This document shows positions 4,188 through 52,464 of a stretch of DNA of 64,000 nucleotides, piece after piece. The stretch spans positions 1 to 64,000 of the forward strand of contig MEDY01000021.1 in NCBI GenBank assembly GCA_001724265.1, written 5' to 3'. The DNA comes from Rhizaria sp. SCN 62-66. Lineage: Eukaryota. A program made the position numbers and the translations under genes. A model generated the notes under the pieces. The model had not been told where the DNA came from. It made no database searches and worked only from the letters and a program-made list of their open reading frames with translations. Numbering within the stretch: the stretch's first letter is position 1; every line of letters starts with the position of its first letter.

Positions 4188-4476
4188 GGTCTATAACAAC
4201 GGCGAAACAAGAATTGAGAGTATGAGTTTAAAATCATGAATATACGCAACAGTCTAAATTACGTGCAAAGTGGCCGCACTTTGATCGATGGTAAAGCCAT
4301 CGAGATATAGACCTGTTTTGTATTGGCGCCATCGAACCTCGGAGCGCGAGCGGTCGGTCGCCGAGTTCGAGCTTCGAGGGCGACGCTGTTGAATACGAAA
4401 TTTCAAGGTGGATATTGCACTGCAGCTCCGATATTTAAGGGATACAAGATTGGATTGAGCATTTAAACGCTTTGAA

Positions 4477-7400
4477 ATGAGTCGCCCCATTTCCCCCACC
4501 GATTTCAACGGTGCTGGGCCGACATTGGATGACATTTATGGCGTAACTAAGTTCACTTCCAACGCCTTCTTCGTACGTCCTTCAAGCTCTATCGCCCCAG
4601 CCATACCACGTCATTGAAGTGTTTTTATAACAACACCAGGCCGTATCTTCATGTAATTTTGCTCTAATCCGATTTGCAACTTTTGAATTTGCCTGTATCT
4701 TTAGTCCGAGCCAGGAACGGCTTTCCACGAAGTATCCGTTGCCCACCCTCCCCTTGCCTCCTTTGCCCCTGCACCCGCTGCAGCGCTAGAGCCACTCCCT
4801 CAGTTTACCACTCGCGATCCTCTGGGGATCGGCTTTGTCCATCAGCAATATCATCCCACCGCTGACGCTGACGCGCGTCCCCAAGGCCCCGCCGCTGCTG
4901 CTGCTCTGCGTGGCGCCGCCGCTGCGAACGAGGCTGACGCGGCGCCCGAGTACGACGACATCGACGACGACTTCGACGCCTCCTACGACTATAACGAAGG
5001 CGACGGCCGTTACGACGATGTCTACGACGGCAATATCGACGGTGCTTACGACAACGCCAGCAACGTCTACGAAAACAGCGACGCCGACAACAACAGAGAC
5101 CGCGTCCGCGACGACGACACAGGCTACGGCGAGCGCTACCAACAACAACACCAGCTACAGATGCAGCAGCAAGAGCTGCGGAGGCGCCGCCATTAGCAGC
5201 AGAGGCTGAGAGAGCGCAACACACACGCCACTACTGAGGACGAGGCCAAGCGCGCTGCGGCCCGGCTGGCTGAGCAGCTGCGCGACCATGACCGTGACCG
5301 TGAGCACGAGCACTACGACAACGACCTGGATCACTATAACCACGTTCTTGAGGCGAGTGACTACGGTGGCGGTGAGGTTGGCGGTTGGGAAGTGCCGCTG
5401 CACCGCCCTCAGCCCATCAGCGCGCGCGCTGCAGCTCACGGTCACTCCGGTGCTCACCCTGCTGCTACACACATCCCCGCTGCCAGCGCTGGCGCTGGCG
5501 CTGGTGCTGGTGCTGGCTCTGTGCCGGTGTGGGGCGACTGGGCCCACGCTCACGGCCGGTCCAGCGCCACCGCAGAGACTCTGTTCAGCCAAGCCTCGGC
5601 TGCGGCGGACGCGGAGGCGCGCTCCGTGCTCCGCCTGCTGTTCACGGTCGACAATAGCGAGGACAACACCGGCGAGAATGCCGACGCTGAGAGCGGGAGT
5701 GCGGCCGTGCTGTGGGGCGCGATGAGCGCGTGGCCCGAAGGCGACTTATTCAGCGCGGTGGCCGCTGCCGTTGCTCTGCTGACACAGTCACTCTCTCAGT
5801 CTAACTCACAGTCGCAGTTACAGCAAACTGAGCCCGACGTTGCGCATAGCAATGGCTCGTTTCTGACTCTGGCCGAAGTGACTTACCAGCTGTCAACATT
5901 CGCGTCAGCCCAAATTGCACACTCCACGCTTCTGCGCTTAGGCCGCGCCGCCGCCACAGCGTCGGGGCTTAACTTCCCGCACGGCAGTGCCGACGCCGCC
6001 GCCGCCGAGGGCCAGAGCGCCCTGCTCGCCGCGCTGGCGCCGTACCTCAGCCCGGGCCTCAAGCGGTCTCCGCCCGGCGTAGGGCGCGTGGCCGTGGGCC
6101 GCGAGGGCGCGGGCGCGCTGCGGCGCGCGCTGGCGTGGGCCGTGGCCGAGGAGCACCTCAGCAGCAGGGCGGCCGTGGCGCTGATGGCGGAGGCCACTGC
6201 GGCGGCGATGGGGGACCGCATGCGCGTCCGCGACTGGGCCGGGCACGGCGACGATTCTGACAGTGGCAGAGCTGATTAGGATGCTGCGCCTACCGTCAGA
6301 GCCCACGATGGTGATGTCCGTACTCCTGCAACAGCGCATGCAGGCGTCCCCACCGCGGTTGACGTAAGTGCGATGACTCACGACCAGTACTTGGAGTATG
6401 TTAGCGCAAGGATGACGAGCGTGACAAGCGCGATCAAAGGAGAAAGTGCCACGCCGACTGACGACGCGAATGACAACAATTCCGACCACATCTCTGTTGG
6501 TGGTACACCCCCGAGTTCGAGTTCCTTTACTCCCACGAAGAGTGGCACTGGTTTCAGCGCTTACGACCCGCAAAACATGCATTACCTGCCCGTCAACCCC
6601 GACGCTGCCGACGCCGCTGGCACGCAGCTGCCGCAGAAGTTCTCCCTGCTGCCGCAGCAAGGCGGCCTGACCGAGGCCCCCGCCTCGCCCGCGCGGCTGC
6701 CTTCTCTGACGCGCTACGCGACGCCGCCGCAGTCCGCGTCGCGCTCCCGCAGCGAGTACGACCAGTATGCCGCCGACATGGCCGCCGCGACGTTCGCGCA
6801 CGCGCGCATTGCCTTCGACGGCAGCGGCAACGAGTGCGTGCGCAGCCAGAGCAGCACGCCGAGCCGTCGCGCCCTGAGCCGCGCCGGCAGCAACAGCAGC
6901 TCCGCTCCACCGCACGACGGCACGCCGCACGACGGCACGCCGCACGACGGCGGCGCCGGGGGTGCTCAGCCGCACGGCTATTACCGTCAGCGCCGCCCAG
7001 TCATGCTCGATGGCTCACCGCAGCCTGAGGGCTCGCCCTCCGCTGCTGACGGCGTGGACTCTGCACAGGGCTCGTCGCGCGGGCTGGGGGCCGGGTCACC
7101 GTCGACGTCGTCGATGCCGCTCTCCCTTGCGGCCGCGTTTGCAGCCAAGGGCGCGAGCCGCTCTGGGCCGCCCAGCGCCTCTCCCAGCCCAACTGCCAGC
7201 GTCGCCGCCAGCGCGGGAAGCAAGGGTACCGGGTCCAGCGGGGCCACGGGTGCTGAGGCTGCGCTGAGCACTGGCACGGCTAATACTGGCACGCGTGACA
7301 AAGACGGTGAGAGCCAGCACTCGCAGGATGAGACGACGCAGCCACAGACAGGCAGAGATGCGCGGAAACACCGCAGTAAGAAGGCTGTGCAGCCACAGAG

Positions 7401-10400
7401 TCCACCGGATCAAGACCAGACGCGGCAGCTGCAGCAGCAATACCGGCAGCAGGGCCAGTTGCCGCCTTTGCGCAGCGATGGGCCCGCAAAGCCCGATGTG
7501 CTGGCCCCCGTGGCGTCGGTGCTCGCTGGGGCCGGGGTCGAGGCCGACGGCGGGTTTGCTTACCACCATGAAACCGACGACGATGATGACGAAGGCCACG
7601 ATGTGAGTAACATTGATGACAGCAACGTCAACACCAACACGATTTCTTCAACTCGCCACAAGCGCAGCAAGTCGTCTGTCGGTGACCAGCAATCTAAGCC
7701 GCAGCAAGATGCCGAACATACCCCATCTGGTTCGTTTCTGCTTCCTGCTTTGAGCTCTACCCAGTCAGCGTCACAGCAGTTATTGCCATTGCAACAACAA
7801 CATCAGTACCAAGCAGGCTGTGGCGATACTGGCTCCGTCAGTGGCCAAATGCGCGCTCTGCCCAGTGGCAACAGCGGCGGCGGCGGTCACACGCGCTCGC
7901 ACTCGTTCACAGTTCTCAACATCACCGACAGCGATATCAAGAACAACGGCGCTGACATCCACAGCAAGGCAAGCAGTCTTGCCGTGAGCACTCCGCCCGT
8001 TGCCGCTGTCCACTCCTCGGCCGCGATCGCGGCTGCTGCTGTTCCAGTCAGCGCCGTCGTGAGCAACACCGCGCCGTCGCCGACAACGCTGTCGGCGACG
8101 CCGCCGCCGCGCAGACTGCCGCCGCTGGGCGCGCTCACGCCCACGCCGCCGCGCACGCCGCCGCAGGAGGGCCGGTCGCCGCACCACTCGCTGTCCCAGT
8201 CGCAGTCGCGATCAACATCGCTGTCGCACCAGTCCAAGCTGCAGCCGCTGGGTCTCACGTCCGCAGTGGCTGATGCCGCGGCACAGGTGCGCACAACAAC
8301 GACGGCTGCGCTCGCGCAAATTGCAAACACTGCCAATTCGTCTCCCACGCAGAGTATGTATAACGACTGTAACAGTGCCTCTGCGGGTTTTATCGTCAGT
8401 GCGCCAATCATTGGCACTAAGCTCGCTCCTCCGACTGCCGTCGCGACAACGGAATCTCGTGTCACTGGCGCTGGGGTAAGCGCCGAGGCTGCCAACAGTA
8501 ATGTCCAGGTTGATGATGCACTAGCGTCCGCCAAGAACGATATGATTGTCACAACAAATGACAACAACAACGGTGCAGTCGCCAGTACTGAAACCCTCAC
8601 GCAAGCTGTCGCTGGATCTGCTGATGGCTCAGTCACACCTGCACGCAAGACCGCTGCTGTACATTCACCGAAAGCACTCAAACTCCCGCCTGCGCTGCTC
8701 ACGCCGCCTCAACCTCAGTCTCTGTCGCAGTCCCAGTCTCGGTCGCACTCGCGGTCGGCCTCGGTCACTCGGTGTGCAGTCGCTGCAGCGCTCGGCGCCA
8801 GCGGCTCCCCAACCGCGAACGCAACCGCAGTGGCTGCTGTGACGTCCATTGCAGTTTACCCTGCTGCGCGGCCGCCGCTGCCGGCTACGCCAAGCCGCGG
8901 CCGCCCCACGTCTCCGCCGCCGCTGGCGCAGGGACACTTGGCCGGTCAGCAGCTGCAACAACAACGCGCACTTAGCTCCAGCCGCACACCGAGCCCCAGC
9001 GCGAGGCTCCCGCCACTGCAGCAAACGCCGCCGCGATCCCAGTCCGGTTCCCAGCCGCAGTCGCAGACACCGTCGCGCGCTGCCTCGCAGTCGAGGTCGC
9101 AGACCCAGTCTCCAGTCAAAGCCTTTGCTGCTGACACTGGTTCGCCATCTACTCCTGGTAACGGCGTTTCTACTTCCGCTGGCCGTGCCAGACGTGGGCT
9201 GCTGGCGCGCACCGCTAGCGACTGTAGTCAGAGCTCAGGTTCGCAACCGGGCGAGGACAGCGCGCCCGGGACTCCGCGCAGCCGCGTGTCCCGCGCACAT
9301 GCGCTGCTGGACATGGAGAGGACGCGCATGCGCGATGGCCGCGCGGCCACTGTGGAGCGCGTGCGCATGCAGCGCAGGGCCAGGGACGGCGCTGAGGCGC
9401 TGGAGACAGAGTTGCACGCGTGGAGCGATGATCACGACCATCATAGCGGTGATTATAATTACGCTGAAAAGCCCTTCAAGCGCGACACTGTTGGCTACGA
9501 CGACGCTAAGACTGGTGCTGTTAGCGGTGCAGCTATGTTTGTCCTGTCTGACGACGACAGCGGGGCCGACGCCCCCGCAGCCCACACTGCCGACCGCAGT
9601 CGCCCGCGCGCCCCGAGCGCCACCCCCAGCGCGCCCAGCGTCGCCAGCAGCGTCGACAGCCAGGACAGCAAGGGCCCCCGCGCGCGCGCCATGGACGCCG
9701 CCGAGCGCGAGCGCAGACGCGCCCTGCGCAAGGACGTTGTTGACCGTGAGCGGCAGCGGCGCAACATGGAGCAGGGAGCTGTAGCCGCGGAACACGAGGG
9801 ACGCGTGTGGACCTCCGACCGCACTGCCGATATCAACACTACGAATGTTACTAATGTCGGCAACTCCACTGTTAACGCCGCGAACGGCAACCGGGTTCTT
9901 CTTGACGCAGTGATCCCCGCCAACATCACCGATGTGCAGAACGAGAAGCCCAGTACAATCGCTACCGGCCTCACGAAGCACGCCACCAGTAACGAGTTCA
10001 ACCTGAGCGCGAACGCGACCGGCGCTGTAGTCAGCGGCGGGTTCACTGCTGTTGTGCTCAACGGTGAAGTCGCGAACATCAGCGGCGACACCGGCGGCAA
10101 CAGCGGTGGCAGCGGCGGCAGTGGTGAGAATCATGGTAATGGGGGTGAGTTCGGTCGACGTGGCAGTCCCTCACAGTCTCCTGCTGATCCGACACCAAGT
10201 TGCAGCTCCGCGTCACCGTCAAAGCACTCTAACCAATCTGCGTCACCCTCACGCACGGCGACTGCTGAAGATGACGTCGATATTGACTCGCACACAGCAA
10301 AGATTGATAATGATGTAACGTCAAAGGCGAACGCTTCTCACAAGCATGCCAATTCTAACTCTGTAACTCATGCGGGCTTTCACATCGCTTCAAGTGTCGA

Positions 10401-13400
10401 GAAAGCTGGTGTTGCTCAGAATGCTGCTGCGTTGACCCAGACTATGACCAAGGCTGATATGGCTGCGCTATTCGACCTCGCCGCTGCCGAGGCCTTTGTG
10501 TTTCCCAGTAGCGACGACAGCAGCAACAAGAGCAACGATGACAAGAGTGCTGGTGAGGTGCTCGTAAAGCCCAGCGGCTTAGGCATGGCAGCTGTTCTTA
10601 CAGTCGAAGCCGCCAACACAGATGGTTTGCTTGCTATTGGTGCACGCAGCATCAGTATTGCGAATGCAGCTGCGGCTCCGCTCAACCCACCTGCTCTAGC
10701 ACCGGGGGCTCCTACAGTTCCGTGCCATCCATTGCCAGCGACCGTGGGCGGCATCCTCGGCGGAGTCTGCATCGCTGACGCACCTCCTTTGCTCCCTCTT
10801 CCTATCTCTGCCGACGCTGCAACAGTTGATCACGTGAACACGCACAACCGCGCCGTCATTGCTGCATCTGTGCCGCGCGAGTTCGCTTCTTGCGTGGTTG
10901 CGACCGCGGCGCTGAACGCGTATAACGCAGCCGTTGAGCGCGCCCGCGTCTTGACGGCGCTGAGCTCTGGCGTTGTGTCGCCGTTACTTGCAGACGCTGC
11001 GAACCGCAACGCTGACGCAACGCGGGACCACTACAAGAAAATGGTCGCAATTACCAAGGCGCAAGCGAAGCTAGATAAGCGCCCGAAAAAGCACGAGCAC
11101 GACGTGCACGCAGAGAGTCCGTCTAAGATCTCTGCCGCTCCCGGTTACACCACGCCAAATGTTGGTGACAGTGTACCAGCGACTGTGAAGGCGGATACTC
11201 CGTACTACACGAACAACAACAAGTACATCACTGGTGTGCCCGGGACAGAGGAGCTCATCACATATGACGTGCTGCCCGCGGAAGTGCCAGGCGGGCCGCA
11301 GCGCGTTGTTCGGCGTCTCTCTTCAAACAGCCCAGCCGCGCGCGTGCAGCAGGCGCAGCCACATGCCACAAAGCTTGTGCATTTGATGACAACGCCCGTA
11401 CCGTCAGCTGTTGCAGGTTTGCATATGGCTGAGACTGCGACATCGGGTGCCGTTATGGACGCAGACGCGGGTGCTGCGCGCGTGCCAGGCATTCTTACAA
11501 CTCATGGCGTTGTGGCAACTAATCGGCGGAATCCTGCTATCATAGACAGCGCTGCTGCTTGTGATGCTGAAAATGCGCTTACACCATCCAAGGCGAACCA
11601 TAACAACGCTGTCAATACGATTGACGCTAACCCGCCCGGTACGCCTGACCCATCTTACCGCCATCGCATTAGTAGCGGCAGCACTGCCAGTACTAGGACA
11701 GCTACGATTGCCAACACTCGTGTGATCACCGATGCTGATGCAGCGGCCGATGCGCACGCAGCCGAGATGACCGCGGCTGCCGTTGCGCTTACGGCAAGCA
11801 ACAGCACGCCCGCGCGCACCACGAGCAAGATCAGTACTGCTGATGATGCTATGATTGTTGCCAACGAGACTGTGCACGCGAGTGAACATGGGGCGGCCAC
11901 GATGCGCGCGGGCTTTGATGAACATTCTCCTCAACCCAGCATCAGTGATGTCCCGACTGGCAACGTTGACGCCGGCGTCAATCGTGATCGTTACACACTG
12001 ACGAGCGGTGGCGACAACGAGTCTCTCTCGAGCAAGACCAGTACTGGCCCTCGGACAAGCCACGGTATGAAGACGAGTGGGACAGCGTCTGCCCTGGCAG
12101 CAGTCGAAGCAGGTCATGTCCACATTGAGCTGCTTTACGGCGAACATGTTGCAGATGGCCACACGGTGTTCGCCACGAGCGCACGCGGCGCTGCCATCAT
12201 TGCTGCTCCGGCATTGCGTGCCGGCAACAGCAACTCCAATGCTGTCACGGACTCAACGCCTAACTCAGCTGAAGACAGTGATATCCCCAAGTCTGCAGCG
12301 CACGTTGACTCGTTCAAGCAACCCGTTGACTCAACACCTGCTGATCGCATCGATTCCCTGTCCAAGTATCTGGAGCATTCTAAGAGCTCTCGTGGCTTCA
12401 TGAACATGCCATCCTCTGCCTCGTTTCCTGCTCCTACTAGCGTGCGCCCCAGTGCCACAGTCAGTGCCGCTGCAAGCGCTGCAGGATTTGCGCTTGCTGG
12501 CGACACTGCTATGGCGACAGGCGCCGGCGCTGCGGGTTTTGCGTCCGACAGTGACGCTGCTGCGGTGATGCGTGCGAATAGTGATGATTACGACCCTGCG
12601 AACACATACGCTGACGGCCCAGCTCGGGCAAACTCACTTCGCAGCGGCAATATTGGTGGTAGTCACAGCATGAGTTCTGGCGCCCCTTCTAGCGCATTGC
12701 TCGCTTACAGCCAACTTGCTCAACACGGCGTTGGCCTCAGTGACTTTGCAAGCCCTGCTAAGCCTGTCAACTCATCTTTGGTTGCTGGCTCCAGCTTAGG
12801 TCTCGGACACCCTCTTCCGAAGCCTTGGTCACCTGCTCGCACGAACAATGCAACTGTAACCGCAAGTGCGACACTTGACCCTGCCTTTGCAGGGCCACAG
12901 CCCTCAGCTTCACCACTGTCTCCACCAGCGTCGTTAGAGTCTTTGCACGGGACGCTCTCTGCACCCGCGTCCGCCGTACCGAATACTAACAGTGGCGACG
13001 GCAACGGGGCCGTGTCCAGCGCCAGCAACAGCACGAGCGCCGGTGCTGCTGGCTCATCGCCTGCTGTGGCTGTCGGTGCGACTGGGAGTGAACGTGATGG
13101 CCATGTAATCCATCACAAAATGCACACGAAGACAACCCACTCTGACCATATTTTCAGCGACCTGCGGAATCATAACAATAACGCCAGTCTTGCCAGTAAT
13201 CCAAGCAGCGCGAGCACGTTGAGCTCTCAGCGGGCACGCGCCGCCGCTGCGGCGGCTACAGCCGCTGCGATGGCAGCGCTGGAGGCCGAAAAACGTGCCG
13301 CTGCAGCAGAGGCTACTGCTTCAGCGAGGGCGAATGAGATCGCTGCGCTTAAGGACAAGTTGGGTACGTAATTTTATTCCAATCAAATGCAGTTTTTAGA

Positions 13401-16400
13401 ATTTTGATCTATACCAAGCTGTATTCTAAACCCTCAATCCTGACATTCACATCATCTCTCTTGTTTTTATTTCCTCCTACAGGTTCTGTCTACGCTGCAC
13501 TCGACGGTGAGCGTGCAACGGTCAAGAAACTGACTGTTACTCTTGCTGCTACCGAGCAGACGGCAGTTGCCGCTGCGGCAACTGCTGCCGCTGAGACCGC
13601 GGCCGCCGCTGCTGCAGCGCATGTTGAACTCGAACGTGCAAAGTCGACGAGTGAGAGTCAAGCGGACGTGATCAAGAGTCAAGCTGCGACCATCGAGACT
13701 CAGGCCGCGGAGCTGACTGCCACGCGCACCGCACTGGCGGCGCTTCAACAACAATACGACCAGCTGCTGCGCCAACACAAGCACGACAACCAGAAGCATC
13801 AAACGGAACTTCAAGATCAACATGGTCTGCTGCAGCAACAGAAAGCGCGTTTGCTCAATGAGCAGCAAGAGCGTGAACGTGACCGTCATGCTCGTGAGGC
13901 TCACGATGCCGAGGTTGCCGCTGCCGCTGCGCTTGCTGCCGCGTCAGCCGCGGGTGCGGGCGCTAGCACGCTGGACGCCGCCCTTGCCGATGTTGCTGCT
14001 GCCCGCGCGGCCGCGGCTACGGCTGGGGCCGAAGTTGCCGCAGCGCGCAGAGACGCACAGGCCGCGATCGAAGATGCACGCGTGGCGCAGAGTGACGCGG
14101 ATGCTGCCAAAGCTGAGGCCACATCTGCTCGGACTGAGCTGTCGGCGATGGAGGCGCGGCTCGCTGCTACACTTAAACGCGCCGCTGCTGCTGAGGCCGA
14201 TGCGGTGGAGGCGCGAGCGCATGTCGAGACCCTGAATGTCGCCGGGGAAGCTTCCCTTGCCGCTGCTGCTGGCGCCGCTGCTGCCTCAGAGCAGGCGTAC
14301 GATGCTTTGCAGCTGCGTTTTGCCGAAGTCGAACACGCACGTAATGAGATTACACTTCGTTTTGAGAGCCAATCGAGCCGGATTGCTGAGCTTGATGCCG
14401 CGCTCGCCGAGAGCGAGACGCTGCGTGTTGCCTTCACCCTTCGCCTTGACGAGCAGTCACGCCGTCTAACTGAGAGCGAGGCAGCACGTGTGGCTGCTGA
14501 GGCTGCGGCTGCTGAGGCCACGCAGCGGGCTGTGATGGCCGAGGCTGCGGCAGCTGCGGATGCGGCAACAGCGGCCGCAGAGGCTGCTGCCCAGGAGGAT
14601 GCTCTAACAGATTTAGAGGCGCGTGTTGTTGCAGCAGAGGCCAAGGTCACTGCTTCTAAAGACCGCGCTACCGTTGCTGAAACACGGTGTGTCACTGCAG
14701 CTGCACTTGCTGCACCCAGTGAGCGGGATAACAACTTGCCTACCATCGACATTAAGATCGGTGATCGTACTGTTAATGCGTCTGCGGAGGCCTCCGAGGC
14801 TGCGTCGAAGCAGATTGTAGCTGACTATCAGCAGCAGTTGTCAACCGCACACCAGCAGCTTGCACAGTCGCGGCAGGACTACGCACAGCTGCAACGGGAT
14901 GTCACGCAGTCACGCTCAGAACTTTTGGAGTCGCAACAGCAACTTGTTGCAAGCAAGCTCGATCTGGTTAACTGCCAACAACAGGTTAACGATAGAAGCG
15001 CGGAGATTATTCGGCTTCAAATTGAGCTCGACGAAGGCAACCACAAGCTAGCAGAGGCTGAACAACAGCTCACTCTTGCCGCCAACGGTATTGTGCACAG
15101 CGAGACCCAAAATGAAGCGCAACTTGCGGACGCTCAGGTTCATCTCGAAGAGATCACGTCTGAGCTTGCGACAACTCAACGCACGCTTGCAGTGAGTCAA
15201 GCGCAGTGTGTGGAAACAGTTTCCAAGCTCGCATCAAAAGAGCAGCAATGTGTGGAGTTGGAGAGCGAACTCGCCGAGTGCGAAGAAGAGCTTGATGCGA
15301 TTGCACGCGAACGCGACGAACACAAGGCACGCGCAGACGACTGCCAGCAGCAGCTTGCGCACGCGAGTGACGCTGTTGCACAGCTGCAGAACACGCTCGC
15401 GGACCGCGAGCAGCAGCTGGCCACATGTGCGCAACAACTCAGCACCCGTGAGCAGAACCTCCGCGAGTGCATGTCGATGTTTGCCACTGCGCGCACGCAC
15501 GCTAGCGATTCTGAGCGACGGCTGCTCGAAACTCAGCAGCAGGTGCGTGAACTGGATCAGCGCGCAACCGAGGCTGAGAAGCGTCTTCACGATTTCGAGC
15601 ACCGTGTTCAGGACTCGGAGCAACGCGCCGCGTTCTATGAGCAGCGCGCCACGGACGCTGAGCAGCGACGTGTTGCTGCCGTGACGCTCTCGTCAGAGCT
15701 TGCTGCGCAGATCGCAAAGGCAGATGAGAAGGTCGCCGTCGCCGAGCTTGAGAAATCACGCGTCGAAGGTATGCTTTCGCAGTCGCTGTCGCAACCAGAC
15801 TTGCAGTTACAGTCACAATCAGCCATGGCGCTCGCGCCGCAGTTGCACACAGACTCGCGCAAGTTGCCGGCGACTCACAACGACGTTGATCATGACCAGA
15901 AGCAGTTAGAGCTACAGCTGTCACAACCGCAGCTTAACGAAACCACGTCGTCACAACGCCTGATTACGAAAACAGCGCAGTACATGATGTCGTCACAGGC
16001 CGCACTGCTGAAATATAAGAAGGAGCGTGACAATGCGAAGAAGCAGACACGCACAGTTGAATCTCTAAACAACAGCGACTCTAATAACAGCACTCTCAAC
16101 AGCCCGCGTCAAAATTTCAGAGAGACATTGTCTGCCGCTAGCCCCAGCTTCAACGGTACTGGCGCCGACGCTGGCACAGGCGCTGCTGGCGTTGTCGGAC
16201 CGTATAGACTTTCAGGTGGGTCACAGCTGGTTCTCATTACAGCTCCTGTGTCTGGCGGCATCAGCATTGGCGCACCGCATCCACAGCAACAGCACCATCA
16301 AGTGCAGCAACATGAGCAGTCGTTACAGTTGCAGCACCGCGAGCATGTGCCACAGCTTCAAAATCACGGCATCGCGCTCTTACAGCAGCAGCATCAGGAA

Positions 16401-17279
16401 CCGAATCAACAACATCTCTTGCGCATGGCTTCGCCTATGCGTCCCTTCAACACCCACTCTGCAGGTTCAGTGATGACGACTCCACACCGTTTCAACCCAA
16501 TGTATAGCAACAGTCAGCTCGGTGCCAACACGGCCACTGCTACGAGCGCACGGAGCAGGGCGCGGCTTGAAGCAGAGGCTGCGGCAGCATCCACTGCAGC
16601 TGCTATAGCTCAAGCCGCGCTTGCGGATGTTGCGAATGAGGATGACTACGACGACGCCGATGCAGAGGCAGATCAAGGTGTAGGTCACTACTCTTACTCG
16701 AATAACGACAATGATGCCGACAACAACACTTACAACGCTAGCCACGTTCGTGATAACATCCAGCATCAATATCTGCACCACGCAACCATGAGTTCACACG
16801 CTTATGATCACAGTCAGCACCAGACGCAATACGGCGCCGCAGCACAAACTGGCTTATTGGGCCTGTCTCAGCCTCCCCACACAGCTCCGCGCTCGTCCGC
16901 ACATCGCCAGCCATATGCAAGTCCGATTGCGGCGAACAGCACTGGCTACTTCGGTGCCATCATGCAGTCGTCCCCATCCTTCTTGCCTCCCGCTACTCCT
17001 GCTCAAAATAGCAGTGGCGCGGGTGTGAGCAGCATCGCGGCAAGCCGGACTGCAGAACGCCGTCAGAGACGCGGTCAGTCTGCCATCTCTGCCGCGGTCG
17101 CGCGGCGCAACAACGCGAGTGCAAGTGGAGGCGCCAACACAAGCGTTGCGGATAATAACCCGAGCAGTGGTGGTGGCAGCAACTTTGGTAGCAACGGGAG
17201 TGGTGGCATCAACAAAGGGAGTGCGATTGCAACCTTAAAAGCCGTCACACGTTCTACTCGGGACATCCACGACTACTAA
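4477..17279 (+). CDS. Giant (~4,183 aa if TAG is read) low-complexity protein with long C-terminal coiled coil; exons 4477-4572, 4705-13363, 13483-17279; two in-frame TAGs (5194-5196, 6277-6279)
   Basis: Exon 1 MSRPISPTDFNGAGPTLDDIYGVTKFTSNAFF ends at a GTACGT donor. Acceptor ...ctttag at 4704 keeps phase. One frame then links track ORFs 5392..6279 and 6373..13371 across two TAGs. Second intron GTACGT...ctacag (13364-13482) joins ORF 13404..17279 (Q/E/A/L heptad-rich), ending in TAA. Confidence 0.75.
6910..6951 (+). repeat. 15-nt coding tandem repeat (CCGCACGACGGCACG, ~2.8 copies; PHDGT)
   Basis: Directly visible; translates PHDGTPHDGTPHDG. Confidence 0.9.
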
Positions 17280-26283: not shown

Positions 26284-29200
26284 TCAATCGTCAGCATCAG
26301 AGGCTTGCTCCGAGTCCACATCGGACTCGGGCGCATCGCTATCCCCGTCCGCCGCAGCGCCATACACAGCGCCTTTCCCGGTCCCGCTGCCGGAACCCGT
26401 TGCGCCCACGATCTTCTTGCTGTCGACGCCCATCGCAGTGATCGCGGTCGCACCAGCAGGCGCCGCGCCGCTGCCCGTGGCCGCAGCGGCCGACGCGGCG
26501 CCCATGGTCTTCTTGAACTCCTTGAACAGCAGCTGGTACTCCTGCTCGGCGCGCTGGTCGGCCTCGGTCCAGCCGTGGTCGCCAGCGGTGGCGTTGGAGC
26601 CCGCGCTTGCGGCAGGGTCACGGCCGCCACCGCCAGCAGCAGCGCTGCCGCGACCGCCGCGGGCGCCGTGACCGTGAGCAGCAGAGGTTCCGCCCAGGTT
26701 CCCGCCGGTACGCGCGGCGGCGCCGCCGGAGGGCGACAATAGACCGGCGAGCGGGGACGACGCGTCCGTGACCGTCGACCCGTCATCGCCGTTGTTCAAA
26801 CCCGCGCCAGCGCCGGCGCCGCTGCCGTTGCCGTTGCTGTGGTCATCCATCATGCCTGACAGCAGAGACGAGATGTTCAACGGCTTGCGCGGCATGCCGG
26901 CGGCGCGCTTAGCCTTGCGGGCGTAGCGCAAGCGGCGGATCTCACGCATGCAGCACTCGCGCATCGCGGCCGCCTCCTGAAGTTTGATACGACAAGTAAT
27001 GATACGACAAATAGAGTTTAAGAGAAGAGAACGTGAGAATTAATGATCAATTACACATTTTATGAAACAAGCACGGTAAATAGAGTGAATTGAAATTAAA
27101 TTCCATTTGATAATATAAAATAAATGTTGTTTTAGTCAGTATCTATGCGTACCTGGTGCGCAGCGCGGCGCAGGAAGCGCGGCAGCTCAAGCACGTGGAG
27201 CTTGCCGGCGGCGTCACCGACGGCGAGCAGCTGCATCTCGGGCTCCGTCGACGGCATGCCGGCCCCGGAGACAGCCGCGGTAAGCAGAGAGCCGCCGCTG
27301 GCGCCACCGCCGCTGCTACTGCTGACTTCAAGCTCACCGAGCAGCCCAGTTGTCATCGACGCAGACGCGGAGTTGTGGCTGTTGTGGCTGCTGCCGCCGC
27401 TGGCGCCACCCATCAGCGCGTTCGACGACGACGTGACCCCAGTTGACGACGCGGCGGGCTGCCAGAAGTGCAGCGACGTGATCCTGTCGTTGCCGACATG
27501 GAACACGGTGGGCTTCAGCGCAGAGTCGAGCAAATCCCACACTTCGAGCGTGCCGTCGGCGCGGCCGATGATGACGATGGCGGCGCGCGAGGGCGACCAC
27601 GCCGCGCACGTCACGGCCTCGCCGGATTCGGGCGCGGAGAAGACCGGGAACGGGTTGTCCGTCTGCCATAGCGCGAATCCCCAGCCCGAAGCCACCAAGT
27701 ACAAGTCGGGGATGCGCGGGTTGCGCTGCACCGTCATCGCGGGCCGCATCAGCGGCGTGATGGGCAGCATGCGGCGCACGGCGCGGCGGCGGGTCGCGCC
27801 CCCGGCGCCGGAGCCGCCCGCGGCGCTGCCGTTGGAGGAGTCGTTGTCCAAGCCGGCGCCGGAGCCGGCGGCCTCCTCCTCCTCCTCGTCCTCGTCGAAC
27901 TGCGGGGAGCCGCTCGAGCCGCTGCCCGCGCCGGCACCAGAGCCGGAGCCGCTCGCGCTAGAGGACGAAGAGCTGGAGCTGGAGCGCGAGTTGGAGCTCG
28001 ACCGGCGGCCGAAGCCGAGCTCGCCGTCACGGGTGCGCGCGCCGCTGCCTCTGCCGCCGCCGCTGCCGCCGCGGCCGTTGTCGTCGTTGTCGTCGCCGCC
28101 GTCGCCGTCAGCGTCGTCGTCATCGTCGTCATCATCGTCGTCATCGTCGTAATCGTCGTTGGCGTTGCTGCTAGCACGCTTCGCACTCGCGACTACCATA
28201 GTGCCCTGCTCAGCAGAGCCACCGGCGGCGTTGTTGCTGCTCCCACTGCTCGCGCTGCCACTGCTGTTCTTGGCCGGCTTGCGCAGAGTCGAGATCGCAC
28301 GCTTCATGACGAGCCGGCCCACGGCGGCCGCCTCCTGGCCCTCCTTGCTCTGCCTGTAGTCCTTGCTGGTGAAGGCGATGCGCGCGTACGCCACCTCGCC
28401 ACTCTCCGTCGCCAGCACCGCGTCCATAGTCGGGCCCAGAGCGATCCGTGTCACAGGCAGCAGCGGCGAGTGCAGCAGCGATGACCCGCCGCCGGAGCCG
28501 GCGCTAACGCCCGCAGCGCCGCCGCTGCCGCCTGCGCCCGCGCCGTCGCCCGCGCCCGCCGCGCCCGCGCCCGCCGCACCGGGGCCCGAGGAGGAGGACG
28601 CGGAGGACGCCGAGGACGCGGCCGCGGCGGCGGAGGCTGCGGCCAGAGAGGGGTCGTGCACCGGCAAGCTGGCGCCAGGGCGCACGAGCGGCAGCACGAA
28701 GAAGGGCGCCCAGCGCACCTCGGGCGTGGGCGGAATGTTGGGGTTCGTCCGGGCGGCGGAGCCGTCGTCGCCGGTCTTGTTCTCGTCGCCAGCCGTACTA
28801 GAGCTGCCACCGGTGCCGGCGCCAGCGGAGCTCGCCGTGGCGGCGATCGCGGTCGATGCGGGGGCCGGGTTCGCGGACGCGGCGGACGCGGCCGCAGCGG
28901 ACAGCGCGGGGCGGCCACTGGGGCCCTTGCCGCCCGAGGCGCGGACGCCGAAGCGGCGGCCGGGGGCGGACCCGCCGGCAGCGGCGCCGCCGGGCGCGGG
29001 CGCGGCGGGGGCCTTGGGACGAAGACGGCCGGTGCGGCCGCCGGTGCTGCTGCCGCTGCCGTCGTCGTCATCGTCGTCGTCACCGTCAGCCGCCGCGCTG
29101 CCGCCGCCGGCCGCCGCGCTGCCGCCGCTGGGGTGCGCCGCGGGCGGCGCGGCGGCGCGGAGCGAGTCGACGTCCCAGTACAGGATGCGGCCGTCGCCGG

Positions 29201-30848
29201 CGACGGTGACGAACTGCATCGGCGGCTGCGCGCCGGGGCGCGGCGGCACGCACTCGCCGCGCCGGTTCAGGTCCACGTGGGGCGGCAGCACCGCGAGGTC
29301 CGTCACGGGGCGCGAGTGCGACCGCTCCGGCTGCGACACAGCCACGGGAGGGATGCACACGACGGTGGAGCTAGCAGCGCCCCCGGCGGCGGCAGCGGCG
29401 TTGGGATCGCTCGACTCGTCGCTGTTGGCGCTGCCGGCGGCGCTGCCACCCTTGCCGCGAGCGCCCTTGGCGCCGGCAGCAGCGGCGGCGGCGGCAGCGG
29501 CGGTGGAGTTGCCGCCGCCGCTGCTGTTGGCGTTGTTGCTATTGCCCTGGCCAGCGGCGTTTGCGTTGGTAGAGCTGGACGTGTAGGCCGAGGAGCGCAC
29601 GCCGACGGTAGGGTCCAGCAGGTGCAGCGCAGTGGCGGAGGGTGGCGGCGCGGTCAAAGTGCGAGCGCGCGGGGACGAGAGGTCCCACACGCAGACCTAC
29701 AGTTGTTGTAGAGGAGCGAATAAGCAAAGATACGGGTCAAGAAAGATGTTATACGGGACAAATGAGCATCATAAAAATGATAGGCGTTAATATAGACAAT
29801 AAAAGTATCTGCATTATAACTAAACAGCAATTCAGTAATAAGTTAACATTTCATTGAGAGATCTCATTTTAAAGTTGTGTGAACGCACCTGACCGGACTG
29901 GAGACCAGCGACGCAGATGTTGGGGTAAGAGGGCAGCCATGCAAACACCGTGACGTTACCGGGCACCTCAAGCACGATATGCGGGTGCAGCAAGTCTGCG
30001 AAATCCCAGACGAGAATCGCGGACGTCATCACCTTGGAGCTGCCGTCGACCCACTGGTCGAAGGTGCGCTTATGCGCGCAGGCGAAGGATACAAGGCCGA
30101 CGCGCGCCGGGTGCCACTGCACCGAGGTGATGAGCCGCTGGCGCGAGAACTGCAGGTCCTGGAACGTGTGCATGGGCTTGAGCGCGTTCTCCGTGCGATG
30201 GCCGAGCGCGGTCGCCGCGTCCGACGAAGCGGCCGCTTCCAGCACGGCGAGCTCGTCGCGGAAGAAATCGAACGTCTCGTTGTGCTGCAGCGCCTGCGTC
30301 GCCAACGCGGCCGCCGCGGGGAGGAAGCCCGAGGCCTGGGCGCGGGCGAGCGCACGCGCGGCCTCGGAGGCGGGCATCGTCATCGGGTGATACTGCGTCG
30401 CTTTGTTCACGCGCACGGAGAAGGACGTCTGCGTCTCGCTCGAAGTCATCTCGGGCGCGGCCTGGAACGCGGCGTCGTGCTCCTCGCGCTCTAGCGCGTA
30501 CCCGGGGATGTTCTGACGGCGGTACTCAGCGATCTTCTCGCCCTGCGGCCGGTCGCTCAGCTCGATCGGCTTGCCGAAAGCGTAGCGGCGCTGCGAGATG
30601 AAGTACTGCAACAGCGGGCGACTGGTCTTGACGCGCGAGCTCTCCACCTCGGCCTCAGTAGCGGGGGAAGAGAACGGACGGGCCTCAATTGGTTGCGGGT
30701 AGTACTGCTCGAGGTCGGCAAAACCGGCAAGGTCCGGGCCGGCCGCGGCTGCGGCGGCGGCGGCAGCAGCAGCGGCAGCAGCAGCAGAGCCGGAGGAGCC
30801 GCCAGCATTGGACTGCTGCGACTGGGCGTAGGGGTCCTCGGAGTACAT
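26284..30848 (-). CDS. WDR63: Axonemal dynein intermediate chain WDR63/DNAI3 (IC140-like WD40 protein); exons 30848-29889, 29696-27153, 26976-26284
   Basis: FQAAP...TQT...NKATQY segment, ITSVQWHP, ILVWDF, CAAWSPSRAAIVIIGRADGTLEVWDLL, LLAVGDAAGKLHVLELP and C-terminal E..AM.....REIRR..Y typical of WDR63. Phase-consistent GT-AG introns; large Gly/Ser/Asp insertions. Confidence 0.85.
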
Positions 30849-31298
30849 GGTGGGCTCTTAGAGTCGCTGTAGCGCGGGTTGGAAACTGCAACTCACGCGC
30901 AAGCGCGGGGGAAGCAAGGGGGGCGAACGCGGGCGCGTGTGGAGCTACAAGCAGAGAGGAACTGACTGCCAGAACAAAGCTCTGCGAAGAGTCGAAGCCG
31001 CTGTATCGGGGGAAAGTAAATGAAAAGGTAGGCAAGGGATGTGAGAAAATGAATATTGATATCTAGCAAATAATAGCGCATCGCAACTCTGGTTTCAATT
31101 TCACTTCAAAGCTCCGATGTCTAAGGGGTGAGTCCGATGCAAACATTCACATGAAGAGAAACCGATTTTGAATTTTTAGACCGGCCGAGTTTTTCGACCC
31201 AAGAGCCGACACACGAGACTCGCCCCAAAAAACGTTTGTGGTGACTCTCGAAAGGTAACTTTAATCATTTGATTCGTGTTCATTTGATCGTTGAATAG

Positions 31299-43050: not shown

Positions 43051-45522
43051 ATGAGGCATTCAGTGGTGCTGTGTCTTCTCCTCGCCGTGGCGGCCGCGTT
43101 CGCCTCGGAGCTGGAGAACACCACAGCGGCTCCTGCGTTCCCGTGGCAGCGCCCGCCCGTGCAGGGCGCGGCGCCGCCCGGGCGCGCCGGTGTGTCGGCG
43201 TCCCTCGCCGGCAACGACCTCGTCGTCATCGGCGGCTGCGAGCACGACATCTCCTGCGTCTCGGACGTCCACATCTACGACACCAACGCCGGTGTTTGGT
43301 CGACGGTCTATTCGGGCGCGCAGAACACGGACCCCGAGAAGTCTCTGCTGTCGCAGATCGTGCTCCCTCCCCGTGGCTACCACTCCGCCACGGCCGTGAA
43401 CCAGCCCGCACAGGCCGCGTACCTCAACAAGCCCGCGTACAAGGTCTACGTCTTCGGTGGCCAGTCTTCCAACGGCTTCCGCAACGACATGTTCACCTTC
43501 GAGACGGCGACGCGCCAGTGGTCCAAGCCCCTCACGCCGGCGGGCGCCCCCAGCGAGCGCGCGGGACACTCGACGGTCCAGTACAAGGACAAGCTCATGC
43601 TCTTCGGTGGCAACACCGCCGCGGGCTTCGCCAACGACGTCTGGCAGTACGACATGCGGCTGAACACGTGGACGCCGCTCGAGACCAAGGGCACCGCGCC
43701 CCCGCCCAGTGCGTACCACACGACGACGCTCGTCGGCGACTTGCTCTACGTCTACGGCGGCCGCAACGACCGCGGCGTACTCGGCCAGGACGTCTTCGTG
43801 CTCGACCTGACTATCCTGTCGTGGTCCAAGCCCATCCTGCAGGGCCACACACCCGCCCCGCGCCACGGCCACGTCGCGTCGGTCAGCGGCAGCAAGATCT
43901 TCTTCTTCGCCGGCTGCGACATCACGCGCAAGACTTGCTACGACGACGTTCCCGTGCTCGACACCGAGAAGCTCATGTGGGTCACCCCCATGCCCCGCCC
44001 CGGCGGCCCCAACGCCGTGCTGCCCTTCCCCGCGGAGGTGGCCGCCGTCAATGCGGCCACTGCCGGGGTCGTAGCGATCACCGCCAATCAGGTACGTCTT
44101 TGGCCATAGAACATACTGTGGGAAGTCTGTTTGTTTGCTAAACGTGAAGCAGATAGTAAAATAGGGGGGTATAAATAGAAACTATCTGCTGTGATATTTT
44201 TTGACTCTTTGTTTTTCTTTCCTCCATGTGTTGGCTCGCGCTCCTATGATCTGATCTCTTGATTTCTCCTGTCCTCACCACTCAAATTGTTCCTCGGTCT
44301 TGCTTTTTTTTTGCTTTCACACACACAGGGTGCGTCTGCGACCAAGGCTGGCTCCGCGATGCTGAACTCGCTGCCCCTGGGCGCCGCCAGCTTCCTCGAG
44401 CTCGGCGCCACGTTCTCCCCGTCCTCCGCCCCCAGCAACGCGCTCGCGCCCGCCGTGCCGCGCCGCCGCCGTTCCACGGCGTACCGCTCGACGCAGGCCT
44501 TCCCCAACGGCGTGCTGCTTGAGGGAGAAGTGCCCGAGATCTACCGGGAGGCCGACTTCGCCCCCGCGGCCAGCAAGGACACCACCGTGTACCTCTTCTA
44601 CTACGACGACGGCACTCCCGTCCCCGCGAGCGCTGTCCCTCACGGCAACGCCGCCGGCGCGTCGCTGCTTGAGGCGGACCCGGCTGCTGCTGCTCCCGCT
44701 GCTGCTGCTCCCGCCGCTGCTGCTCCTGCTCCTGCTGCTTCCCCTGCTCCTGCTGCTGCCGCGCCCGCCGCCGCCGCTGCCCCTGCCGCCGCTGCCCCTG
44801 CCGCCGCTCCCGCCGCTGCTCCCGCCGTTGCTGCCAAGCCCGCTGCCGCTGCTGCTGCCGTTGCCTCCGCCGTTGTTGCTGCCATCACCAACAACACCAC
44901 CCCCGCTGCGGCCCCCGCCGCGCCCGCTGCTCCTGCTGCGCCCGCTGCTCCCCTGGGCGGCAACGGCACCGCCCCCGCCAACGCCACCAACGCGACCGCC
45001 GCCGTGCCGCCGCCGGGCACCGTGCCCGTGGTGACGGGCAACGGCACCATCGTCCACATCAGCAACACGAGCGCGGGCGCCAACGCCACGCGCGCGGCCA
45101 ACGCCACCGCTGCGCTGCCCTTCACGGTTGACAACGTTATCAAGTCGGGCAACCTGTCGTTCACGCCGCACGCCAACATCTCCGGCACGGTCGCGATCCC
45201 CGCTCCCGTGGCGGCGGCTAACGTTACCAAGGAGACGCTGCCCAAGATCCTCGGCCTCAAGAACCTCATCGACCGGACTGCAGCGCAGCAGCGCGACCGT
45301 GAGACGTTTGACGCGCAGCATAAGGCCAACAACCCCGAGCCCGTGCCCTACACTGGCACCATGGCCGCGCCCGCGGGCCACAGCTACGCGGGCGCGTTCG
45401 TGGCCGATGGACAGAAGCTCATCGTCTTCGGCGGCTGCCAACTCTTCGGCGACAAGTGCGGCGGAGATGTGCTGTTCATGCACGTCAACCCCAAGATCGA
45501 GTACCAGATCGCGCTGCGGTAA
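43051..45522 (+). CDS. Secreted Kelch-repeat beta-propeller protein with Ala/Pro mucin-like insertion; exons 43051-44091, 44329-45522
   Basis: Signal peptide MRHSVVLCLLLAVAAAFA; five consecutive Kelch repeats (R.GH....FGG...ND...D....W) and a sixth at the C-terminus; GTACGT...cacag intron. The 3' end could alternatively splice at 45519. Confidence 0.88.
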
Positions 45523-46307
45523 GCGAAATACAAGCGCACGCAGTGTGGTTGAGTAAGGGACTGATTAGCGTAAGAAAAAAGGAAGGGCCCAACATATAAA
45601 GCGAAACTTGTGCTGTTTTTTAATGACTGGAAGTTAGCTTTGCCTGGGTGGGTCTTGAGGAAAGAGCACCTGGGATAGTGTCGGAAGACACGAACATACA
45701 GCAAATATTCAAAGCATTATATTGTCTATGATACAACTGCACTAGCATACTCTTCTTGTATGTGGAATTGATATGATCACTCTCTGTTTATTCATGCTTT
45801 TGTATGCCGCGAAGTGACAGTACCACAAGTGGACCGCGAACGGCTACTCTGACGAGAGAGGGACAAAGGAGGCGTCCGATCTTGAGGCCCAAAATATACA
45901 CAACTTATCCCTGTATACGGAATGTCTCGGGTACTCTGCGATTAGATACGATTTAATTTATCTGTAATCATTTTGAGAATCTGCCCAAATGGCTTCTGTC
46001 GCCTGTTAATCGTCTTCTCACTACCACCTTCTTCGTAACCTCTCCCATTGCGCTTGGCCTCCTCCTACTCGTCTCTAGGCGAACGCCACAAGCCCTACTA
46101 GCGCTCTGAACGCTGAAGCGCTCTTTACTCAAACAAAAAACCGTTTAGACTCACCCTTGGCACTGCGCGCTCGCGCCTGCTCTCGCACAGTCGCCTTTTC
46201 TTCCCAATACCTACTCAGGCCGACGCACACTCTCGCGTCAATTCATTCTTCTTTCGAGAGCGCGCTCACACCAGCAGCAGCACAACAGAACAACCACAGA
46301 CAGCAAC

Positions 46308-49300: not shown

Positions 49301-49403
49301 TCCTTCTTTCCTGGTCAACACGGCCGGCGTGTCGGGGTTTAAGGACTGGGTCAACAAGTTCACCAATCACCACCTCAAGATGCACGATAACTCCACCGCG
49401 TAA
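46308..49403 (+). CDS. START/SRPBCC lipid-transfer domain protein with N-terminal acylation motif and central coiled coil
   Basis: C-terminal LYDLDARKSWD, PMIKSRDFL, YRSIDHHSVP, DPRGSIPSFLVN typical of START domains; starts MGATCS; R/E/A-rich centre. Confidence 0.85.
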   Translation: MGATCSQERPVEKVNMYDKQRMWTTYSLVNRDERELDSNQSHEFWPGVLGFDREVIRLDRGCCADDSLDQTYGIPDVRVLEDDDDPEPTAGSKDKDDNRPKPKPAELKPTVTLRGAHDDIWFDDIYDATNKLATSRDFVALNEKETEQLQRMREERPAFSRLTKHDSSLSNSNPDANAAITDSASDASAAASATSASAETTDAASPDDTDDLEGGGLSTAALLAKHGPLSLGGGTGEGGAEGETGDGPASGDTPTPLPTYTPRTREAMQKEAEAEAESDGGISPDEEDSPAELIDELLGNADSDESASDDDNEAKHADDNGEDHGEGEGVDREKAQKAAAERAERAERRRQRRARDPRTQYRIMMAMLNGMSRDQAAAYDRELRVAERAARKAQRKALAASLGMTEEQVVALAAEVRDRERAEKLARLQAERAARRAAREEVKLAKQTLREAHHKAWEEKQIARALAAERARQEAEAEEHRAAMERLARVAAGLDGPAAVARETYDFSHIKFGILTEEEKIRNELKEEAQTEEEKAEEERRHLRALRRARRLGLTGEALQAYLAREKAKADEERRARRDAIAAGGADAAAAAAAAEAAEASDGAGKVRRPGTRLPPGFRMPEAEADALAQIRVAAASAQARKDAGVTGDEDEDFRDDEHAHGPSHSHGDDHVAPPGGASTASAAAISAVVAAETEALSYEAAQQQRAATEAAALAKLHLPPVAQGDEGTTHLQVAPKGRVDPAKEVIEEGVRLINENELRWWEEKLLSKLSSDWSSFSKEKGKFRMFKAKISALDLANAPQSGLQAFISEIFIPHSTPMQVFHSLYDLDARKSWDLGYLKNEVTHEFQGHPFHNEVWFTRNEVPMIKSRDFLCIRAYTMYRDLRTLFKHRLAKTDMSDAEAAKCIIPARYESREALRADAAGEIAAISYMYRSIDHHSVPENKDTLRAWSQGAAFIYRVPAPTDGLGEGLNPPDETLTQGREGCMVYFVSATDPRGSIPSFLVNTAGVSGFKDWVNKFTNHHLKMHDNSTA

Positions 49404-49968: not shown

Positions 49969-52464
<2,496 letters not shown>

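Follow-up and report, generated by a model that had tools for sequence, protein, structure and literature searches.

Positions 4,477 to 17,279 of contig MEDY01000021.1 from Rhizaria sp. SCN 62-66 (GenBank assembly GCA_001724265.1) hold one very long gene whose reading frame is broken by two TAG triplets and by no other stop, and it is quite possible, if short of probable, that UAG, rare as it is in frame, acts as a sense or non-terminating codon in this organism. The whole stretch of DNA analysed here, positions 1 to 64,000 of the forward strand, is referred to as the window. This reading is favoured because the TAGs are real, lie in continuous coding sequence of a live-looking gene and are not bypassed by splicing or by downstream starts, because none of the 15 gene ends in the window is a TAG, and because the lineage offers a precedent. 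The idea itself goes back to a model that had seen nothing but the letters and their open reading frames (ORFs), hereafter the sequence-only reading. Checks for assembly error, for splicing, for boundaries of the coding signal and for genes ending in TAG all left it standing, whereas the in-frame TAGs in conserved genes that should go with it were not found.

If UAG is indeed sense, it would no longer be an efficient terminator and would have gone from gene ends, where only UAA and UGA would terminate. The two TAGs would be kept in the mature mRNA and ribosomes would pass them, decoding the in-frame UAG as an amino acid through a suppressor-type tRNA(CUA), a release factor that reads UAG poorly, or both. 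UAG would then be a very rare sense codon, with about 1 occurrence in 8,000 codons.

A long gene interrupted by two TAGs

The long gene consists of three exons with 12,552 nt, or 4,184 codons including the stop (Table 1); ORFs, introns and coding score thus uphold the length of about 4,180 codons proposed from the letters. Frame 1 contains only two stops over 4705-13371, namely TAG 1 and TAG 2, which split it into the ORFs 4705-5196, 5197-6279 and 6280-13371. That these are the sole breaks of the frame, in the peptide contexts originally quoted, was confirmed in the sequence, and so was the ORF of 2,332 aa, counted from the ATG at 6373. Exon 2 scores as coding from about position 4720 and has its first in-frame ATG at 5161; therefore, the ATG of exon 1 is needed. 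Intron 1 matches the introns verified in conserved genes in donor type, length class and low GC, and intron 2 links the frame-1 ORF with the frame-0 ORF 13353-17279. The intergenic region 4191-4476 separates the start of the long gene from a minus-strand gene (ORF end at 4190) and is the only promoter-like, i.e., low-GC, stretch upstream of 6600.

Table 1. Coordinates of the long gene, its two in-frame TAGs and the upstream intergenic region
Feature	Position	Strand	Remarks
Divergent intergenic region	4191..4476		AT-rich; GC 0.32-0.47 in 60-nt windows, one window 0.67
Exon 1	4477..4572	+	ATG and 31 codons, ends in phase 0
Intron 1	4573..4704	+	132 nt, GTACGT...CTTTAG, GC 0.41
Exon 2	4705..13363	+	8,659 nt, frame 1; contains both in-frame TAGs, no TAA or TGA
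TAG 1	5194..5196	+	codon 196; ...ELRRRRH-TAG-QQRLRERN; followed by C (TAG CAG CAG)
TAG 2	6277..6279	+	codon 557; ...DSDSGRAD-TAG-DAAPTVRAH; followed by G
Intron 2	13364..13482	+	119 nt, GTACGT...CCTACAG, GC 0.33, phase 1
Exon 3	13483..17279	+	weak coiled-coil matches; TAA at 17277-17279, then A and AT-rich sequence

Region 4477-17279 is a single gene for a low-complexity coiled-coil protein without known relatives. Pfam returned nothing for the protein apart from weak coiled-coil matches below cut-off, and the protein atlas gave nothing useful for the exon 3 product. With residues 1-1199 of exon 2 as query (TAG read as Q), HMMER retrieved only the window's own two ORF pieces from 1.84 billion cluster representatives. 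A word-index search of 4705-6279 against database proteins of 288-919 aa yielded no match and none spanning TAG 1. A comparison by tblastn of the 101 aa surrounding either TAG with the window, made in search of internal paralogues, gave low-complexity matches only, and a 40-base pattern around TAG 1 had no match in genome or viral contig sets.

At 65-70% GC, chance open frames of at least 300 codons arise, such as an antisense ORF of 358 aa at 5938-7014. As openness alone proves nothing at this composition, we scored codons by log-odds, with about 11,900 codons from other long ORFs of the window as the training set. Sliding windows of 120 nt from 4720 to 7300, 43 in number, were all positive in frame 1, which was the best of the six frames in 40 of them. 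The score shows no dip at either TAG and the signal resumes at once after TAG 1, around which GC at the three codon positions amounts to 0.71-0.80, 0.36-0.43 and 0.71-0.74. Per codon, the scores of the two ORF pieces are 0.45 and 0.33, compared with 0.19-0.53 for accepted genes and at most 0.17 for long ORFs in non-coding frames. GC around the TAGs is 0.60-0.63 vs 0.31-0.41 in verified introns, in agreement with the initial remark that both sit in GC-rich sequence unlike the introns here.

Throughout the window, 118 stop triplets have 60 open codons on each side. When flanks of 100 codons were scanned, only the two TAGs were clearly coding-like on both sides (0.60/0.38 for TAG 1, 0.26/0.36 for TAG 2), and the three other hits of that scan are weak antisense frames (0.26/0.07, 0.11/0.11 and 0.08/0.06). 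No suspicious in-frame TAG was found near the start of the other genes, each of which has an ATG shortly after the upstream stop. An in-frame TGA at 62733, before the last gene, was rejected as a further candidate: it belongs to a C-rich leader ahead of the ATG at 62748 and is not coding.

Presence of both TAGs in other sequencing runs

Several studies contributed metagenome runs, from bioreactors and wastewater, that contain the stretch 4300-7300. TAG 1 is covered by a 793-nt contig of run X4 (4721-5513) and TAG 2 by a 1,409-nt contig of runs X2/X3 (5488-6896), each with 0 differences from the window. X4 dates from 2025, belongs to a study other than that of the source and is about 0.3-1.2% different from the window elsewhere. 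X2 and X3 share identical contigs, depths and differences despite their assignment to different studies and years; probably the same data set was filed twice, and the two runs serve as a single witness. Different studies, with runs of 2016/2017 and of 2025, thus show the TAGs. An assembly error at 5194 and 6277, against which the sequence-only reading had advised a check, finds no support in these identical contigs from other runs, which keep the TAGs.

Between the two sites, exon 2 carries a (GCTGGY)n microsatellite at 5486-5521 that encodes ...ASAGAGAGAGAGS..., and the contigs of all four runs end there. This repeat draws thousands of foreign contigs, its summed depth being 2,427 for X4 and 656 for the RNA run X13, and is the source of most false joints.

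Splicing and downstream starts

Introns of the window are short and AT-rich; the four that were checked, 44092-44262 being left out for a wrong acceptor coordinate, measure 119-161 nt at a GC of 0.31-0.41, have GTACGT, GTATGT or GTCCGT donors and have acceptors that follow pyrimidine-rich tracts. On the plus strand, no donor of the type GT[AG][ACT]GT exists between 4574 and 6363. In-frame GT..AG pairs span TAG 1 in 132 and TAG 2 in 227 cases, yet none of them has a GC of 0.45 or less (minimum 0.59 and 0.58, respectively), and no GTRNGT or GTNCGT donor was found among them. Splicing out of the TAGs was consequently rejected, as the spanning pairs are GC-rich and lack a usable donor.

The notion of separate genes ending at the TAGs was discarded as well. 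Coding resumes at once, the next in-frame ATGs lie at 5722 after TAG 1 and at 6373 after TAG 2, so that no ATG occurs for 175 codons past TAG 1, and a low-GC spacer is missing: no 60-nt window between 4741 and 6600 has a GC below 0.52.

Gene ends

Gene ends were rebuilt from ORFs, coding score, donors and Pfam matches, only some of them being anchored by homology (methionine aminopeptidase (MetAP), DRG2, DDX31 and PCMT domains). The ORF ends at 18398, 27132, 29832, 32876, 40326, 44109, 51359 and 56609 fall within introns. Fifteen genes end inside the window, eight with TAA, seven with TGA and none with TAG, the end of the IMPDH gene being TAA or TGA. The sequence-only reading had listed 16 genes with eight ends each in TAA and TGA; its statement that TAG ends are lacking stands, while the number of genes drops to 15 and that of TGA ends to seven, because two of the models form one gene (26284-30857).

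For comparison, TAG accounts for 23.3% of the stop triplets in non-coding sequence (12.2 kb in total) and for 22.2% of those within 300 nt downstream of gene ends; in 4 of the 15 genes, it is also the first in-frame stop to come after the true one. The probability of finding no TAG among 15 ends is 0.013 if its share is 25%, 0.035 at 20% and 0.09-0.21 at 15-10%. In-frame TAA or TGA was not found in correctly framed coding segments. Hence UAA and UGA are kept as terminators and UAG is absent from the 15 gene ends, both of which a code change confined to UAG would produce.

The base after the stop is G in ten, A in three, T in two and C in none of the 15 genes, i.e., a purine in 13 of 15 (e.g., at the ends 17279, 22559, 26284, 33291, 37568, 41105, 45522 and 60682). 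These bases constitute a strong termination context, and TAA and TGA are used about equally despite the high GC at third codon positions of coding sequence.

Constraint and transcription of the long gene

No disabling lesion in the form of a frameshift, TAA or TGA was found in the 4,184 codons, which does not agree with a pseudogene. At least 13 differences separate the window from X4 within the gene (from 40 of 91 difference rows), and eight of the 13 listed, at 11223-17099 plus 7441, are synonymous. The probability of five or fewer non-synonymous changes among 13 is 0.012 at a neutral expectation of 72%, and 0.012-0.046 under neutrality. The long gene looks alive; a very young lesion is still possible.

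Contigs of the polyA metatranscriptome X13 match the gene with 0-1 differences at 8762-8998, 10787-11084 and 11702-11965 in exon 2 and at 13908-14144 in exon 3 (0 differences there), a weak hint at its transcription. Among the matches listed for 4300-7300 there was no RNA data set. The summed depth of X13 over the bins of the two TAGs, 0.32 and 0.38, is indistinguishable from foreign low-complexity matches at 85% likeness.

Lineage and known UAG systems

We tentatively regard the organism, judging from its sequence, as an uncultured, GC-rich and sainouroid-like cercozoan that is nearest to Guttulinopsis by one gene. The DDX31 piece, which is recorded on contigs of up to 135 kb, has its best matches among named organisms in Paulinella chromatophora, P. 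micropora and Amorphochlora; a quick DDX31 tree of 29 rows unites the window, seven metagenome proteins and these three cercozoans in an 11-row clade with a support of 95 in the Shimodaira-Hasegawa-like approximate likelihood ratio test. In a careful 29-row DRG2 tree, the window falls into an 8-row clade (support 100/99), whose sole named member is the sainouroid Guttulinopsis vulgaris. Moving Guttulinopsis to the chlorarachniophytes, a group chosen after seeing the tree, costs 55 log-likelihood units (approximately unbiased test, p 6e-5). The placement is based on two single-gene trees with few named taxa, a long branch for Guttulinopsis and no rRNA. Metagenome relatives with 72% identity in DDX31 and with 84% and 80% in DRG2 outline a clade of uncultured cercozoans, and a metagenome scan with the DDX31 piece gave two distant loci among the matches listed. 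Sainouroids have been found in sewage works (PMC8827150). Rosculus vilicus is an unlikely source of the window, its genome being described with 37.7% GC (PMC10770858) vs about 60% here.

The closest precedent is the rhizarian exLh, a sainouroid that reads UAG as leucine and the only member of Rhizaria known to use it as a sense codon. According to the published account, its terminators are UAA (56) and UGA (15), UAG is the commonest leucine codon in the proteasome genes, its eRF1 is altered at the position equivalent to human Leu69, and Guttulinopsis is its closest sequenced relative (PMC5304391). exLh belongs to the same supergroup as the organism of the window and, by the DRG2 tree, probably to the same neighbourhood; as in the window, its in-frame stops are TAG only and its terminators TAA and TGA only (PMC5304391). 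It differs in the ratio of UGA to UAA ends, which is 15:56 there and 7:8 in the window (PMC5304391).

Glutamine is the meaning given for UAG in Iotanema spirale, with UAA kept as a stop (PMC5304391), and phyllopharyngean ciliates are described as reading it as leucine or glutamine, the latter for Hartmannula sinica as well as Trochilia petrani (PMC11687900). UAG and UAA have been uncoupled in these cases, and glutamine fits the CAG-rich context of TAG 1; however, the fornicate Iotanema and the ciliates are unrelated lineages in which UAG is widely used as sense. In these accounts, UAA and UAG were thought to be mechanistically coupled until 2017, and nuclear codes that change UAG while UAA stays a stop are given for few lineages (PMC5304391; PMC11687900). 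For Sainouroidea or Cercozoa, the literature searched, supplements excluded, contained no report of a UAG change beyond the 2017 paper (PMC5304391).

The proposal that UAG probably means glutamine draws on the context of TAG 1; no homologue or internal paralogue aligns at either site, and the precedent within the clade is leucine. A preference for glutamine over leucine is not supported.

Guttulinopsis vulgaris was judged to have the standard code, nearly all of its stops being UAA with one putative UAG (PMC5304391). Two differences set it apart from the window. Guttulinopsis has a general bias toward UAA, whereas TGA is freely used in the window and only TAG is missing; furthermore, the in-frame stops found in a single Guttulinopsis transcript were ascribed in that paper to a sequencing error, whereas the TAGs of the window recur in other runs.

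Rarity of in-frame TAG and further points against a sense codon

A number of observations weigh against UAG as a sense codon, most of them concerning its frequency. In-frame TAG occurs twice in about 16,000 codons, compared with 639 CAG, 170 CAA, 154 TTG and 419 CTG (the tally of 16,531 codons in total includes 416 codons of 62749-63998 read one base out of frame, which gave two spurious TGAs). This is about 100 times rarer than expected of a settled synonym of CAG or TTG (TTG/CTG 154/419). Moreover, the TAGs lie 361 codons apart, both within the first 13% of one gene without homologue, and the early caveat that only two TAGs are known, both in one non-conserved gene, thus keeps its force. None occurs in the approximately 12,000 window codons outside the long gene, and none in the nine genes of the window with Pfam domains, which are a small sample, as are the only fifteen gene ends. 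The recurrence across many genes and at conserved positions that marks a UAG-only code change is accordingly not seen in the window, although so small a sample is still compatible with rare use. exLh shows the contrast: 384 in-frame UAGs were counted in 71 of its genes, many at conserved leucines (PMC5304391), whereas the window has 2 in 15 genes and none in a conserved gene.

Mutation and base rates point in the same direction. Nonsense changes make up 2.6% of the possible substitutions in this Q-rich and GC-rich sequence, and 57% of them give TAG; two TAGs out of two are thus no surprise if mutation alone is at work. Nonsense alleles occur frequently, and code changes confined to UAG have been described in only a handful of lineages (PMC5304391; PMC11687900). 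Guttulinopsis, the nearest named relative in the DRG2 tree, resembles the window in that UAG is nearly absent from its gene ends, under what was judged the standard code. X4 also has contigs identical to the window, and its TAG 1 contig may thus come from the window's own strain. Among the matches listed, no X13 RNA contig bridges TAG 1, TAG 2 or an intron. A tRNA(CUA) was not found by ARAGORN or Rfam in the 64-kb window, which is too little sequence to judge by.

Alternative explanations

Almost as likely as a sense UAG, and likewise short of probable, is a standard code together with two nonsense mutations among the first 557 codons of the gene, TAG 1 arising most simply by a change from CAG to TAG. 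The gene would then be either a recently disabled allele or one with a dispensable N terminus, the remaining approximately 3,600 codons being expressed from a transcript that starts downstream; the lack of TAG at the 15 ends would be due to chance, to a habit of the lineage or to both. Premature stops in a gene without known family are indeed what a nonsense allele or a young unitary pseudogene would show, and the most frequent route to nonsense in such sequence leads from CAG to TAG. In addition to the base rates and the predominance of TAG among possible nonsense mutations, this explanation gains from the position of TAG 1 beside CAG CAG, from the clustering of the TAGs in the 5' 13% of a fast-evolving gene without homologues, from the unremarkable probability of 0/15 if the TAG share is 10-15%, and from Guttulinopsis, which uses UAG for at most one terminator (PMC5304391).

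It has to cope, however, with a gene that is free of frameshifts and of further stops over 12.5 kb, in which the coding signal is full on both sides of the TAGs, and whose strain differences downstream are mostly synonymous (8 of the 13 listed). Between 4741 and 6600 there is no low-GC, promoter-like stretch from which a shorter transcript might start, and a ribosome scanning the full-length transcript would meet a 195-codon ORF and numerous ATGs before it came to 6373. The same TAGs recur between studies, in runs from 2016/2017 and from 2025. Finally, the specific absence of TAG from gene ends, where TGA is about as frequent as TAA, must be a coincidence.

Programmed readthrough restricted to this gene is improbable. 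UAG would be a normal stop, the two sites would be leaky, and a minority of ribosomes would make the full-length protein. Known cases of such readthrough extend the C terminus beyond one stop, and UAG-CAR-YYA is the leaky context of the tobamovirus type, known from plant viruses. TAG 1 resembles the first half of this context, being followed by C and then by CAG CAG, and C follows none of the 15 true terminators. TAG 2, by contrast, is followed by GAT GCT, and we know of no leaky context of this kind. No downstream structure was found, as shuffled sequences fold just as well as the 100 nt starting from either TAG (z +1.03 for TAG 1 and -0.25 for TAG 2). With two leaky stops in succession, 5% and 13% of the way into a frame of 4,184 codons, hardly any full-length protein would be made, and the lack of TAG among the 15 gene ends would stay unexplained.

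Alternative 3' splice sites, by which exon 1 (phase 0) would be joined to the AG at 5196 or at 6279, are very improbable. Three nested in-frame products would result, with the TAGs as stops of the shorter forms. Both TAGs do read TTAG, an acceptor right after an in-frame TAG would be in phase with exon 1, and many introns of the window end in TAG. Yet the 30 nt before each TAG are purine- and GC-rich, without the pyrimidine- or AT-rich tract of the checked acceptors; the introns would measure 624 and 1,707 nt and be coding-like with a GC of about 0.6, far from the short AT-rich introns verified elsewhere; and TAG would end two products here but none of the 15 other genes.

An assembly or sequencing artefact, with wrong bases at both sites or a chimeric join at 5486-5521, is hardly conceivable: although the contigs of all runs break at this repeat and none of those listed crosses it with 31 nt to each side, both TAGs are found far from the ends of one contig each from another run, with 0 differences and coding-like sequence on either side, so that a chimera at the repeat would create neither TAG. 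A small part of the probability falls to none of the explanations considered here.

What a rare sense UAG would mean

In its most specific form, the reading of UAG as sense would amount to an early, low-use change from stop to sense in a GC-rich wastewater cercozoan near the sainouroids. UAG would be off the gene ends and decoded, perhaps as leucine, only in weakly constrained sequence at about 1/100 of the settled frequency. We consider this whole scenario rather unlikely. If it is true, the change known from exLh would be older and wider in the clade, or the clade would be repeatedly prone to lose UAG termination. The lineage would also provide an example of the intermediate stage assumed in models of code change. 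To our knowledge, a nuclear intermediate with UAG off the terminators and barely used as sense has never been observed, all described cases being mature, with UAG in wide use. Annotators of eukaryotic bins from wastewater would moreover be warned of genes cut short at TAG. If the plain explanation by nonsense mutations is right, we are dealing with an ordinary damaged gene and a small-sample quirk of stop usage.

Other genes of the window

The window is gene-dense eukaryotic DNA with a GC content of 0.45-0.78 per kb and about 60% overall. Pfam matches were obtained in nine genes: DDX31/DBP7, TAP42, PCMT, MetAP, Hikeshi, Kelch, IMPDH, DRG2 and WD40. eRF1 is not among the genes of the 64 kb. ARAGORN called a tRNA-Ala (anticodon GGC) at 47318-47389 on the minus strand, within the GC-rich coding ORF 46149-49403; this is probably a false call, Rfam having no tRNA there at gathering score.

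The WD40-repeat gene on the minus strand (26284-30857) is apparently joined from the ORFs 30857-29890, 29696-27132 and 27039-26284 by two AT-rich introns with the donors GTGCGT and GTACGC, and its WD40 repeats lie near the end of the middle exon. The IMPDH gene (49969-52216, minus strand) has at least four exons. The TAA of its last clear exon overlaps a donor-like GTAAGT, and the C terminus is formed either at this TAA or at a TGA after a mini-exon of five codons.

A gene of two exons at 54336-58776 on the plus strand, whose intron (56595-56745) ends in TAG, encodes in exon 1 a Brinker/HTH_Tnp_1-like DNA-binding motif near residue 680 and contains long tracts of poly-Q; the gene may be related to transposases, either domesticated or active. 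The last gene (62748-64000, plus strand), which follows the C-rich leader mentioned above, starts with MGACASVPKS, an N-terminal Gly/Cys motif that we take to be of the kind used for myristoylation and palmitoylation.

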